A DNA stretch of 64,000 nucleotides from Massalongia carnosa (GCA_965645245.1 OZ287068.1:1798001-1862000), one strand, 5' to 3'; numbered from the stretch's first letter, positions 43,688 to 48,949 are shown. Notes: a model not told the origin generated them from the sequence alone. Translations and numbers: made by a program.

Positions 43688-45703
43688 ATGATGCGGTGGC
43701 ATCCTAAACCTTGCCTCTCCGCTCTGCGATCATGGACATGGATAGGTCTGTTACTTTGGCCGGTGGCCTCGGTGACAGGCAAGACGGCAGCCGATTACTA
43801 TGTTAGCTCGATGCCTGGCCAGCCAGACGGGCCATTATTGAATATGCATGCTGGGTATTTGATCGTAGCACCATTAAAGCACTATGAGAGCTAATGAGTT
43901 GGCAAAGGCACATCGAAGTCACCCCGGAGCATCATGGCAACCTCTTCTTCTGGCATTTCGAAAACCGCCACATTGCCAATCGACGGAGAACGGTGATATG
44001 GCTGAATGGAGGTCCAGGGTGTAGCTCTATGGATGGGGCACTGATGGAAATAGGACCGTACCGGCTGAAGGACAGCGCACATCTGGTTTACAATGAAGGG
44101 TCCTGGGATGAATTTGCAAATTTGCTGTTCGTGGACAATCCTGTTGGTACCGGCTACAGCTACGTGGACACGGATAGTTATGTACACGAACTTAAGGAAA
44201 TGGCGGATCAGCTAATTATCTTCTTGGAGAAATTCTTTGACCTCTTCCCAGAGCACGAAGATAATGACGTGGGTTGCATTGGATGCATATGCCATGCCCT
44301 AGCTAACGGATGACCAGATATATATTGCTGGCGAATCATATGCAGGACAGCACATTCCTTATTTAGCGCAAGCCATTCTTGACCACAATGCCTCAGCAGC
44401 CAGAAGAAAAACCTGGAACCTTCTAGGCCTCATCATTGGAAATGGCTGGATATCTCCGTTGGAGCAGTATCATGCCTACTCGGAATACGCATTTGCAGCC
44501 GGTTTGATCAAACCTGGTTCAAATGAAGCCAAACAGCTCGAACCTACCCAACAAAAATGCGTCCAGGCTCTCAACGCCACTGGAGGGACCGACCATGTCA
44601 GTATCTCGGCCTGCGAGGATATTCTGGTGGAGATACTGCGGTTATCGCAGAAGAACAATCGCTGTGTCAACATGTATGATGTCCGCCTTGATGATACCTA
44701 TCCCAGCTGCGGCATGAAGTGGCCTCCGGATCTGGAATACGTAACCCCCTATCTTCGGCGCCAAGACGTCATTGAAGCCCTGCACGTTAGCAAAGGCAAG
44801 CAATCCGGGTGGACCGAATGTGGCGGAGCCGCCGGCGCCAATTTCGACGCTTCCAAATCAAAACCATCCATCACCATGCTTCCAAGCCTTTTAGAAAAGA
44901 TGCCCATGATTCTCTTCTCCGGCGACAAAGACTTGATCTGCAACCACCTAGGTACAGAAGAATTCATCCATAACATGGAATGGAATGGCGGCAAAGGTTT
45001 CGAGCTTTCCCCCGGCACGTGGGCCCCCCGCCGCGACTGGACCTTCGAGGGCGAGCCGGCCGGGTTTTACCAAGAAGCGCGTAATCTCACGTACATCGTT
45101 TTCTACAACTCGTCGCACATGGTGCCCTTCGACTACCCGCGCCGGACGCGAGACATGCTGGACCGCTTCCTGAACGTCGACATCGCCAGCATCGGGGGAA
45201 AACCCTCGGACTCGCGCATCGATGGAGAACAGGGCTTGCAAACGAGCGTTGGCGGCCACTCGAACAGCACCACCGCGGAGCAGGCGCAGCAGACCAAACT
45301 CGCCGCGGCCAAGTGGGCGGCTTACTACAAGTCCGGCGAGGTGGCGCTGGTGGTCGTCATCATTCTGGCGAGTGCATGGGGGTGGTACGTGTGGCGGGAT
45401 CGACGCCGGAGGACGGGATATCGCGGCCTGTTCGGCGGCTCGGGCTCCAACGGCCTCCAGTTTTTCCGGGACAACATGGGTGTCGCGGGAGCAGCGAGGC
45501 ATGTGGGCGGGGATGTAGAGACGGCGGACTTCGACGAGAGCGAGTTGGATGAATTGAATGTCGTTGGTGGCGAGGAGGGGGAGGGGGATTATGAGGGGAA
45601 ATATGGGCTTGGGGGTGGGCTGGATGGCGATGATGAGGATGATCGGCCTGGGGGCGTGAACGGGACGGCGAATGAGAAGACGAATGGGCATGCGGAGAAA
45701 TGA
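43688..45703 (+). CDS. KEX1: Pheromone-processing serine carboxypeptidase Kex1
   Basis: Signal-like N-terminus, [52 protein letters not shown], a C-terminal TM segment and an acidic tail. Confidence 0.95.
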
Positions 45704-46293
45704 GTTTGGCAGGTGGCCAAAGGGGGGGGGGGGAGGGGACGGCGAATACTGTAGGTAAGGAAGCCAGGCTGCATTTGTCGGAGTTTAGTTACCTTGCCTT
45801 GTCTCTGGAAGATGGATGGGGGGGGTTATTTCTTGGAACGTATAGGGGAAAAAGGGAACTGGGGCGAGAAGGGCAGCATTTTCTAGAGACATACAGCATG
45901 CAATTTTTTTCTAGGTATTTAATTTGCTTACTATCTTCATGGTTTCTTCTATTCCCGAGTATTTCAATAGATGAAGGGGATTCATAGCAATATAAATTGC
46001 ATTCATTGCAACGGGTTCTTAAATCAGAGGTTGGAGAGTGGTTGGTATATACCTGCTGATTTTCTTAGTCCAGGAATACTGAGAAGAGAGGTCCCGTCCT
46101 CCCTGCTCGAGTCCTGACGCAGGCGGGTGAGATACGAATGATAAAGCGTAATTTGTCTAAGTATGACTATCCTCGCTCACTCGTATATGCAAGAAATAGG
46201 TCCGGGAAGGAATTTCTTTGCATTCTTACTTCCAGCCTAACTCGAACACATTGAGTAGAACAAAAAAAGCGGTGATGGGGGGTTTCCGGGGGG

Positions 46294-46424
46294 ACGTCCA
46301 CTTCAGATACCATAACGCATAAATCGTGTCGTCACGGGCCCTCCGACACCACGCGGGGTCTGCGGAGAAAATAGCCTAAGTGCTTGACTCTATTGATTTC
46401 TGGGATTCTCATCATTGTGGACGT
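46294..46424 (-). ncRNA. Box C/D snoRNA with two rRNA guides (snR66-like and snR68-like)
   Basis: 8-bp terminal stem ACGTCCAC/GTGGACGT; box C ATGATGA (46415-46409); D' CTTA (46380-46377); C' GTGACGA (46335-46329); box D CTGA (46306-46303); 11-nt antisense elements TAGAGTCAAGC and TGCGTTATGGT matching conserved LSU rRNA segments as recalled. Confidence 0.88.
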
Positions 46425-46680
46425 GCCTTTCGGGGAAAGAGGAATGGAGGAGAAGTCTGACTTGTGCGACCAAGCGCTTTCCTTCTTGTGCCTTCCTCTC
46501 TCACAGCCAGAATCTTTCGCCTTCTTCTATTTCCCCCCAATGGATTGTGTTTCATCCCTCCTATGCAAGAGCGTAGGAGGAGAAAGGGAGGGAGAAGAAA
46601 AAAGTCGGGCTGAAAAGAGAGATCTCGAGGGTAAGGGAGGAGGGAAAACGGGCTTTGGGGAAATATGTATGAGAGGGGGG

Positions 46681-47416
46681 ACTCCTCGCCTCATGAATAA
46701 GCCCCATCGAGTTACCCCTGTGCTCTCAAAGGCAATGCCAACGGGAGAAGAAGGGCAATCGCATAACTATCCATCACGACCAAAAACACCCTCCCATGAA
46801 GTCTCCTCACCACACCAATACAATATCTTTTACCCCCAATTTCTCCCCAAGGCAGCGAGACCCCAGTAAGACAAATCCCCAGCCTCCTTCCCAACCATCA
46901 ATCTCAACCTCACCCGTTTCGAGTTCCCCATCAACGAATCCCGCCCGGAGAAAGAAAGCGCACGCGAGAAATCACAAGCCTAGTCCCGAAGAGCTCGGAC
47001 TCATATCATCGTCACTATGGTCTCTTCAGAACCGAAGCTCACGATACCCCAAGATAACTTCAACCCCGACTTGGAAAGGTGTCACGAGGTCAAAAACAGA
47101 GAGAGAAGTATGTCAGGGATGGGAAGTGCGAGCGGCGAAGGGAAAGTCCACGAAGTCAAGGGAACCAATCAGGGTTACTATCAGGAAGAACAAGGTGATT
47201 GGTGGGAAAGAAGGAAGACGGAAGTAGGGAGGGTTAAGCCGCGTAAACGTTGCTTTTATGGCGGCGCGTTTCCGCTGCTCATCTCACTGCCCCGAAGGGA
47301 AGGAGATGCGGTCCGGGGACTTTCTCCCAAAGCATATGCACATATTGTGAAGTGGTGAGAGATTTGGCAATCGTCTCGGTTCGTAAGCTTTGACTGCGAT
47401 TCTTTGAGCGAGGAGT
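46681..47416 (-). ncRNA. NME1: RNase MRP RNA (~736 nt)
   Basis: P1 ACTCCTCGC/GCGAGGAGT; P3 CAAAGCTTAC...ATATGCTTTG; CR-I GAAAGTCCCC (47324-47315) pairs with CR-V ACTCGATGGGGCTTA (46712-46698); P8 GCG-GAAA-CGC (47275-47266); CR-IV ATAGTGACGAT (~47018-47008). Confidence 0.92.
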
Positions 47417-47450
47417 GAAGAGGGAAGATGGAGTATGATGGGTGATGAAA

Positions 47451-47457
47451 ATTTATA
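47451..47457 (-). promoter_or_regulatory. TATA box for the MRP RNA unit
   Basis: TATAAAT ~35 nt upstream of the predicted 5' end; lies in the ~295-bp gap shared head-to-head with GLE2. Confidence 0.6.
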
Positions 47458-47710
47458 GTTGTGGGGGATGAGGCTGATGAGCAACTAACTAAGCGAGTGG
47501 CTGAACTTGGAAATGGTGGCTTGATGGGCTAGGCGGGCGCGGGTGCCTGTTTTGGGATTGATATACTCGCAGCCAGAGGAGAGAGGGCATTCCGGACTGA
47601 AATTGATGCGGTGGAAGATATCAGCCAAACAGCCCCTATTTGAATCCCCCCAGCAAATGATCAGAATTCAACGCACCTAGATTCTTTTCCGCCATCATCG
47701 CCAATCTATC

Positions 47711-48949
47711 ATGTCAGGCCTCTTCGGTACTGCCTCCTCCAGCTCGAGTTCCAACGCCACACTCGGGGATATCTCCAAAGACGTCGCTTTGACAGCCCCC
47801 CCCGAAGACAGCATATCCGACCTTTCATTTTCGCCCGTATCAGAGCATTTGGCCGTGGCATCATGGGACAAAAAGGTCCGCATCTACGAGATCAACCCAC
47901 AAGGCGCAAGCGAAGGGAAAGCTCTCTACGAGCACGAACAACCGGTATTCAGCTGCTGCTGGTCTAGAGTAAGCTGCTATCATTCTCGAAATCTTCAACT
48001 CGACCGCAAATGCTCACGTAAATGTAAAACTACAGGACGGCACCAAAGTTGTCAGCGGAGGCGCCGACAAGGCAGCCCGCATGCTCGACCTAACCGCACC
48101 TCAAAACCCTGCGGAACAAGTCGCCGTGCATGACCAGCCCATCCGCTGCGTGCGCTTCGTCGAAGTGCCCGGTCAAGCAACGCCCGTCCTCGTAACTGGC
48201 TCGTGGGACCGCACAATCAAGTACTGGGACCTGCGGCAGCGCACGCCCGTGGCATCGGTGACGTGCCAGGAGCGGGTCTATAGTATGGACGTCATTAACA
48301 AGCTGCTAGTCGTCGCGACGGCAGATCGCTATATTAATATCATCAATCTCGATAAGCCAACCGAGTTTTACAAGACAATGCAGAGCCCGCTGAAGTGGCA
48401 GACCCGCATCGTCAGCTGCTTCGCTGATGGCTCCGGCTTCGCAGTCGGTAGCATCGAAGGGCGTTGCGCAATTCAATATGTCGAGGATAAAGACAGCAGG
48501 TAAGCCTATTTCCCTCTCGCCCCTCTCAACGCCTCCTCGAAAGAGAATGCCCGCTAACCTGGCCCTCCCCTTTCCTTCCATATAGCGCCAACTTCTCCTT
48601 CAAATGCCACCGCCAAACCCCCCCCGGCCAGCGCGACGTCAGTCAAGTCTACTCCGTCAACGCCATTTCCTTCCACCCCGAACATGGCACCTTCAGCACC
48701 GCTGGCAGCGACGGCACCTTCCACTTCTGGGACAAGGACGCCAAGCATCGCCTCAAGGGCTATCCCGAAGTCGGCGGCACCATCCCGGCCACGGCCTTCA
48801 ACCGCCAGGGAAATATCTTTGCGTATGCCGTGAGTTATGATTGGAGCAAAGGGTACGCGGTCAATACGCCGCAAACGCCGAACAAGGTCATGTTGCATCC
48901 GGTGCAGCAGGATGAGTGTAAGCCAAGGCCGAAGGTGGGCAAACGGTAA
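47711..48949 (+). CDS. GLE2: WD40 poly(A)+ RNA export factor Gle2/Rae1
   Basis: PPEDSISDLSFSP, SWDKKVRIYE, TGSWDRTIKYWDLR, SPLKWQTR, GSIEGRCAI, FSFKCHR, GTFSTAGSDGTFHFWDKDAKHRLK, YAVSYDWSKG; two introns. Confidence 0.96.

Follow-up and report, generated by a model that had tools for sequence, protein, structure and literature searches.

A stretch of 64,000 nucleotides (nt) of Massalongia carnosa DNA (GCA_965645245.1 OZ287068.1:1798001-1862000), referred to here in its entirety as the window and numbered from its first letter, contains four features that follow one another on the minus strand: a TATAAA box (47452..47457), an unusually long gene for the RNA of ribonuclease (RNase) MRP (46683..47415), a spacer of 258 nt (46425..46682), and a box C/D small nucleolar RNA (snoRNA) of the snR66 type, 131 nt in length (46294..46424). 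An earlier note, made from this sequence alone, had recognized the same order on one strand, which the coordinates bear out, and had interpreted the features as a dicistronic unit whose two RNAs are separated by an RNase III-type hairpin. We find that its observation is partly confirmed and its interpretation partly supported. The window is a diverged copy of a conserved fungal cluster in which a Rae1/Gle2 gene lies divergent from the MRP RNA gene, itself followed by a structured spacer and an snR66-type snoRNA. The conserved signal within that spacer would be a three-way junction resembling transfer RNA (tRNA), which probably marks where the MRP RNA and the snoRNA are cut apart.

The MRP RNA gene, at 46683-47415(-) and 733 nt in length, matches Rfam family RF00030 over the full model (positions 1-266) with 77.7 bits, where the gathering score is 50 (E 8e-20), and this is the sole family above threshold in the 64 kb. 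It had previously been placed at 47416-46681, which is close to the Rfam limits. The RNA includes both CR-I, GAAAGUCCCCGGAC, and the 3' region AUGGGGCUUAUUC, the latter of which occurs once in the 64 kb and not at all in shuffles. The TATAAA box, read directly in the sequence, is positioned 37-42 nt upstream of the 5' end of the RNA. With its 733 nt the window MRP RNA is much longer than those of 19 measured relatives (437-651 nt), and the extra length falls in the insertion region of the Rfam model.

The snoRNA possesses a C box, UGAUGA, at 46414-46409 (AUGAUGA at 46415-46409), a degenerate D' box, CUUA, at 46380-46377, a C' box, UGACGA, at 46334-46329 and a D box, CUGA, at 46306-46303, and is closed by a terminal stem of 8 base pairs (bp) in which ACGUCCAC (46424-46417) pairs with GUGGACGU (46301-46294). 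The C box, D box, terminal stem, and a guide that ends one base before CUUA identify it as a box C/D snoRNA. This 13-nt D' guide, AAUAGAGUCAAGC, occupies 46394-46382, occurs once in the 64 kb, and is identical to the D' guide of Neurospora crassa CD2, which is listed as an snR66 homologue with the target 26S-Um2379 (PMC2780460, Table 1) and whose pairing, 3'-AUCUCAGUUCGA-5', is printed in supplementary file 4 of the same paper. We defined an snR66-type RNA by a D' guide complementary to 5'-AGCUUGACUCUA of the large-subunit ribosomal RNA (rRNA), the target being U2417 in yeast numbering and the second U of GCUU lying opposite the fifth base upstream of D'. Through its identity to the CD2 guide the window guide would share this complementarity and, because all 13 nt are identical, the window snoRNA is, as judged by its guide, an snR66 orthologue, the identity that had been suggested for it before. 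Rfam provided no snoRNA family that matches this snoRNA at E<=10 (searched over 45800-47700), nor any snoRNA family at E<=1 in 20 related loci. A further sequence, GCGUUAUGGUAU (46307-46325, -), stands in the D-side guide position directly before the D box; it is common to the related loci, described below, that have cloverleaf-like spacers (L008, L014, L026, L030, L043, L049, L058, L059, L087, L088), and most other loci carry CUACGACGGUAU at this position. A second, lineage-specific methylation target of the D-side guide seems likely.

The pairing of these two RNA genes is not peculiar to the window. A scan of metagenome contigs for a C box with the guide and NCT 4-30 nt beyond it yielded 93 loci (denoted by L numbers). 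These were picked by a single guide pattern on unlabelled contigs and include many near-duplicates, so that 62 unique spacers are represented; we take them to be from filamentous ascomycetes, a placement made on contigs that bear no taxonomic labels. None of the 93 is a close relative of the window, with which blastn matches are confined to conserved parts of the MRP RNA and snoRNA. At 55 of the 64 loci that have at least 700 nt upstream of the snR66-type snoRNA, an MRP RNA lies upstream on the same strand (53 with both MRP motifs, and two with CR-I that were confirmed by Rfam), and Rfam recognized MRP RNA in all 20 loci sampled, 19 above the gathering score and one cut by the contig end. The remaining nine of the 64 have neither MRP motif; eight of these show neither D box nor terminal stem, and the pattern probably matched them by chance. 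The snoRNA of the ninth, L037, is convincingly of the snR66 type, since boxes, terminal stem and the two guides are all present, and no MRP RNA was detected by motifs or Rfam in the 1187 nt upstream of it; at least one lineage has broken the linkage. Overall, the survey of MRP-snR66 adjacency that the earlier note had set as a check reveals a conserved linkage and, as read from these sequences, one that is ancient and tightly kept. The old link it had proposed therefore stands, and its operon-like character, a single transcript, is something we infer.

Two observations on individual contigs bear on this linkage. On a low-depth X1 contig (record 3, 1393 nt) the MRP RNA 3' end and the snoRNA guide (window 46681-46714 and 46375-46393) are matched on one strand approximately 160 nt apart, versus 288 in the window; this contig appears to derive from another organism with a shorter spacer and the same kind of linkage. 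Additionally, the sequence of three contigs sets in only 0-20 nt before the MRP RNA 5' end and continues through the spacer and snoRNA (L006 and L018 by their contig starts, L012 by its contig end). These could be transcript-derived assemblies, or could reflect breaks at the CT-rich promoter tract.

Spacers of the relatives range from 85 to 243 nt, with a median of 123; the window spacer, 268 nt when measured in the same way, is longer than any of the 62 unique spacers with which it was compared. Their shared order consists of a short trailer, a T-rich tract, a GGRUCUG strand, a variable hairpin, a 5-bp hairpin with the loop GUCRAA and, with no intervening base, a CAGAYUC strand that pairs with the 7-nt GGRUCUG strand to form a 7-bp closing helix. 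In a MAFFT alignment of 36 sequences 98.1% of the cells over these 12 pairs are paired, and 11 of the 12 pairs have changed on both sides. None of 500 shuffles reached the observed values, and slid partners gave 24-52%. A covariance model built from these sequences, R1, finds the element in 59 of the 93 loci at E<=0.01, and the pair counts are unchanged on 47 distinct model-aligned hits, in an alignment that leans towards the model. Unconstrained minimum free energy (MFE) folding yields both helices in 32 of the 36 elements (mean z -2.15); energy is by itself a poor test for whole spacers of the relatives, for which the mean z is -0.81 and only 7 of 62 fall below -2. Among the 36 seed loci, 12-38 nt separate the MRP RNA end from the junction, which itself occupies 51-91 nt, and a further 15-49 nt separate it from the C box. 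The third arm, situated where the earlier note had placed its hairpin, differs among loci both in length and in sequence, shrinking to 5 bp in L073. The covariation indicates that the spacer is constrained as RNA and, therefore, that it must be transcribed.

Other short motifs recur around the junction. In L015, L007, L052, L087, L026 and other long-spacer loci the long middle hairpin has an internal loop with a conserved ACACUCU or AAACUCU, after which comes a small hairpin; the motif is also present in L012 and L030. In most relatives GUUCA(C) directly follows the MRP RNA P1 helix, within the first 5-8 nt, and the window has GUCCCC there (46682-46677); it may be part of a mature 3' tail or a trimming stop. 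The 5' stem of the snoRNA often reads GUUCA as well. A pairing of the trailer GUUCA with the snoRNA 3' end was considered and dropped, there being no covariation (for example in L011 and L014).

The 7-bp and 5-bp helices of the junction are contiguous in 36 of 36 seeds, and a 7-bp helix abutting a 5-bp hairpin is the arrangement of the acceptor/T-arm stack of tRNA. In 18 unique loci the likeness extends further, since UA-GCUU-AUGGMA-AAGC-G, which is close to the tRNA consensus D arm, comes right after the first strand and is followed by a long hairpin, CAGAA and the T-like arm. The Rfam tRNA model (RF00005) aligns end to end with the 72-nt element of L019, in which the D-arm letters are almost consensus, with 22.3 bits (E 0.0064 in a search of 101 nt). 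As the criterion for a tRNA gene we took an RF00005 score of at least 29 bits, the gathering score, or an ARAGORN call with a consistent anticodon, and on this basis tRNA gene identity was rejected: the L019 score lies below 29, the L006 element has no Rfam tRNA match, and ARAGORN at its default setting makes no call in 22 loci or in the window at 45000-48500. Relaxed ARAGORN settings gave scattered calls with inconsistent anticodons, and the 210 calls of the mitochondrial mode are noise. The element is more aptly described as tRNA-like, in that a 7-bp acceptor-like helix is continuous with a 5-bp T-loop-like stem in the relatives, and it is perhaps tRNA-derived.

The window spacer (46682-46425) is pyrimidine-rich in its 5' half and purine-rich in its 3' half. 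The earlier note had given its length as 256 nt, close to the 258 found, and had seen no second TATA box, in keeping with the absence of TATAWA. It had also paired 46621-46608 with 46508-46496 as the arms of an RNase III-type hairpin, and this proposal fares unevenly. Both of its arm pairs, this one and UUCUUCU with AGAAGAA, are present at the coordinates given, and when 46626-46452 is folded alone the arms form the base of a long hairpin (46496..46621, -; z -1.95, 6 of 200 shuffles) at the position of the relatives' variable arm. The whole spacer, on the other hand, folds no better than its shuffles (MFE -71.6 versus -68 +/- 4.9 kcal/mol; z -0.74, with 45 of 200 dinucleotide shuffles as good), and its MFE structure retains only CAGCC/GGCUG of the proposed pairing.

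Traces of the conserved junction can nevertheless be discerned in this spacer. A search of 6 kb with R1, filters off, returned as its best match a hairpin at 46474-46461 on the right strand, which aligns locally to model positions 51-64 (9.6 bits, E 0.32). This T-arm-like hairpin, G-CUUG-GUCGCA-CAAG-U (46460..46475, -), lies 44 nt upstream of the C box, a spacing found also in the relatives. It is followed by CAGACUUC (46452..46459, -), which comparison with the alignment designates as the counterpart of the closing-helix 3' strand (consensus CAGAYUC), reading CAGACUU at 46459-46453. Further upstream, GAGAUCUC (46619..46626, -) is a possible remnant of the 5' strand, to judge from its position and from the GAUCU core that it has in common with the consensus GGAUCUG. 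It pairs with 46459-46453 at five of seven positions in the homologous register and at six of seven if shifted by one; in the window MFE structure the 3' strand pairs locally with GAAG instead. The window thus has the 5-bp hairpin as the only detected part of the tRNA-like arrangement. In our reading it keeps this T-like hairpin and has a weakened closing helix, and its variable arm has grown greatly, through tracts of pyrimidines and purines, into the long hairpin. In run X4, which is labelled organism B and elsewhere agrees with the window, a contig ends at 46508 and another departs from the window sequence at 46621 with 71 unrelated letters. The stretch between them comprises the inside and the 5' arm of the long hairpin, and a strain variant in this low-complexity hairpin or an assembly artefact is possible.

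Is the long hairpin, then, the site at which the two RNAs are separated? In an explanation built on the earlier proposal, a dicistronic RNA polymerase II precursor is cut in the hairpin at 46621-46496 by an RNase III orthologue of the Rnt1/Pac1 type, and exonucleases finish the ends. Such a mechanism would draw on the length of the window hairpin and its presence in the local MFE structure, and also on the weakness of the window closing helix, so that this lineage may have changed its signal. In substrates of the Rnt1p type an AGNN tetraloop closes the stem, and the cut falls 14-16 bp below that loop. No AGNN loop on a stem of at least 3 bp occurs in the window spacer; among the relatives, only 7 of 62 spacers have one on a stem of at least 5 bp. 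More generally, an RNase III signal should be a nearly perfect duplex of some two helical turns, kept at a constant position. A duplex of this kind is present in the window, but the arm that corresponds to it in the relatives varies as described, and a 5-bp arm is too short for an RNase III substrate. Furthermore, the covarying parts of the spacer are the closing helix and the T-like hairpin, and not the long arm. As a conserved signal the hairpin is consequently not borne out, and we consider cleavage by RNase III in it rather unlikely as the explanation of the unit. RNase III may act in Saccharomycotina, since PMC4334505, citing Lee et al. 2003, counts the snR66 of yeast among the known substrates of Rnt1p and adds that other ribonucleases process it too, and it is possible for the expanded hairpin of the window.

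The number of transcripts and the polymerase that makes them can be approached through promoter and terminator sequences. The window's TATA box has no TATAWA equivalent upstream of the MRP RNA in any of the 16 related loci with 70 nt of upstream sequence; by eye these loci have, around -35 to -45, boxes rich in A, and a CT-rich tract comes after them. Runs of at least five Ts occur inside 14 of 20 MRP RNA genes, including that of the window, which has two internal T5 runs. Within 60 nt after the snoRNA, just 10 of 50 loci have T>=5 and 7 of them have T>=6 (10 unresolved loci of the 62 were set aside), and the T7 run of the window (46262..46268, -), 26 nt downstream of its snoRNA, is not conserved among the relatives. 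The tract before the junction reaches T>=5 in 11 of 36. Such numbers speak against polymerase III as the enzyme of either part of the unit, and transcription of the MRP RNA or the snoRNA by that enzyme is unlikely. Nor is there room for a separate RNA polymerase II promoter, because only 12-38 nt precede the junction and 15-49 nt follow it, and TATAWA occurs in none of the 62 spacers. A single precursor from the MRP promoter would be the simplest and most economical reading.

The alternative of two transcription units would have the MRP RNA end at the T-rich tract, with the tRNA-like element acting as an internal A/B-box polymerase III promoter for a dicistron of element and snoRNA. An internal promoter of this kind serves plant tRNA-snoRNA genes and yeast SNR52. 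In favour, the junction has the T-rich tract immediately on its 5' side (T>=4 in 24 of 36), an A-box-like UAGCUUAUGG is found in 18 loci and a B-box-like GUCGAA in all, and the window has its T7 run after the snoRNA. Conversely, the D-arm/A-box part is missing from most elements, the loop that resembles a B box is short by one base, the T6 run in the spacer hairpin of the window would stop polymerase III, and T runs downstream of the snoRNA are scarce. Finally, a preprint reports RNA polymerase II on NME1, the yeast MRP RNA gene, and on snR66. Two separate units thus strike us as quite improbable.

Upstream of the unit, the first exons of a Rae1/Gle2-type messenger RNA (mRNA) export factor gene occupy 47711..48503 (+), as determined from open reading frames and matches to PDB chains annotated as 'mRNA export factor' (E 1.2e-31). 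Its ATG is 296 nt from the MRP RNA 5' end. The exon-1 peptide matched 40 loci by tblastn, and in 40 of 40 the gene is divergent from the unit and upstream of it, so that the GLE2 neighbour postulated in the earlier note is supported both in the window and among the relatives.

Taken together, these observations incline us, with modest confidence, towards an RNA polymerase II precursor comprising MRP RNA, spacer and snR66 that is cut in the structured spacer, which is the best explanation of the locus as a whole. From a start some 40 nt beyond the TATA box, RNA polymerase II would transcribe the MRP RNA, the spacer and the snoRNA as one precursor, and an endonuclease would then cut within the structured spacer. 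By analogy with yeast, where Rex3 plays this part, a 3' exonuclease would trim back to the MRP RNA 3' end, and a 5'-3' exonuclease, again by analogy, would trim forward to the boundary of the small nucleolar ribonucleoprotein. RNase P and tRNase Z are predicted to be the likeliest conserved cutters because the acceptor/T-arm geometry is one that they recognise. A fuller model can be offered only tentatively, and we would stop short of calling it probable: in filamentous ascomycetes the MRP RNA, a tRNA-derived spacer and snR66 would form one RNA polymerase II precursor, and RNase P and tRNase Z would cut the tRNA-like piece out of it, making entry points for the formation of the MRP RNA 3' end and the snoRNA 5' end, with an Rnt1 stem-loop replacing the element in budding yeasts and with the element partly eroded in the lineage of the window.

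Several points weigh against this explanation. Co-transcription and every cleavage step are matters that we infer. The resemblance to tRNA is incomplete, given the subthreshold score of L019, the lack of an Rfam match for L006, the absence of default ARAGORN calls, and a T-like loop of 6 nt versus 7 in tRNA. In the window itself R1 detects the T-like hairpin only, with an E value of 0.32, and chance could give a closing-helix pairing of five or six out of seven. The T>=4 tract before the junction could end some transcripts. The taxonomic breadth of the loci is not fixed, resting as they do on unlabelled contigs and a single guide pattern. In addition, the preprint cited above counts five other yeast clusters as polycistronic, and NME1 and snR66 figure as separate genes in yeast lists. 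A last alternative, that the element is a tRNA-like small RNA with its own function that is released from the precursor, could account for the strong covariation, the conserved loop sequence, and the longer versions with the extra ACACUCU motif, but we regard it as very improbable, because there is no conserved anticodon-like loop, the anticodons of relaxed ARAGORN calls are inconsistent, the middle arm is free in length and sequence, and accumulation of the piece is a supposition.

In the literature searched, with subscription papers mostly outside its scope, neither an MRP-snoRNA precursor nor a tRNA-like element beside fungal MRP RNA is described. The main texts of an Aspergillus fumigatus noncoding RNA paper and of an Ascomycota snoRNA paper mention neither MRP nor snR66, and Rfam 15 does not contain this structured RNA element. 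How the MRP RNA 3' end is formed outside budding yeast is poorly understood, as is the reason why some snoRNAs keep fixed neighbours. If the precursor model is correct, the element would link an enzyme that cleaves pre-rRNA with a guide for rRNA methylation and perhaps also with RNase P and tRNase Z; it would constitute a nuclear 'tRNA punctuation' between two RNAs of ribosome biogenesis, RNase P being the sister enzyme of RNase MRP. The model of processing is directly testable in tractable fungi such as Neurospora and Aspergillus. For the window alone the claim is more modest, namely that it is a diverged member of the arrangement with an expanded spacer.

The closest known counterpart is in Saccharomyces cerevisiae, where SNR66 (YNCN0014W) adjoins NME1 (YNCN0013W), both on the W strand and between KSH1 and SSN8 (PMC9731477). 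The adjacency that the earlier note had cited from yeast is accordingly real. The yeast pair resembles the window in its two RNAs, their order and their single strand, with RNA polymerase II on both yeast genes, and parallels are also seen in the ends: yeast snR66 has a processed 5' extension, and the yeast MRP RNA 3' end is formed by exonuclease trimming for which Rex3 is needed (PMC12129344). There are also differences: the yeast neighbours are SSN8 and KSH1, whereas the neighbour here is Rae1/Gle2, and the signal reported in yeast is an Rnt1p site, whereas the conserved structure here, a three-way junction that resembles tRNA, has no AGNN loop.

In N. crassa, CD2 (EU780926) shares with the window snoRNA not only the D' guide but also the layout of C box, guide, D', internal stem, C' and D box. 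It is recorded only as 'IR' (intergenic), with MRP RNA unmentioned (PMC2780460). CD2 is 99 nt long and has a canonical D' box, CUGA, whereas the window RNA has 131 nt, a D' box of CUUA and a different D-side guide.

Polycistronic snoRNA clusters of yeast, reportedly described by Qu and colleagues in 1999, are said to be cut by RNase III and trimmed by Rat1p. They are like the proposed unit in having one RNA polymerase II precursor, endonuclease entry sites in the spacers and exonuclease trimming. Unlike it, they consist of snoRNAs only and use AGNN stem-loops, whereas the unit here couples the RNA of a ribozyme with a snoRNA, and its spacer has another conserved fold.

A tRNA-like element acts as a cutting signal in MALAT1-mascRNA, and genuine tRNAs are joined to other small RNAs in the dicistronic tRNA-snoRNA genes of plants, which are mentioned in PMC2780460, and in the tRNA-5S rRNA genes of Yarrowia (PMC2566860). 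The plant and Yarrowia units contain real tRNA genes transcribed by polymerase III, whereas the element here is not a tRNA by Rfam or ARAGORN, is situated between two other RNAs, and has inconsistent polymerase III signals. What the plant, Yarrowia and MALAT1 units have in common with the element in the fungal spacers is an acceptor/T-arm-like module beside a small RNA, a configuration in which RNase P, tRNase Z or both could free the neighbour.

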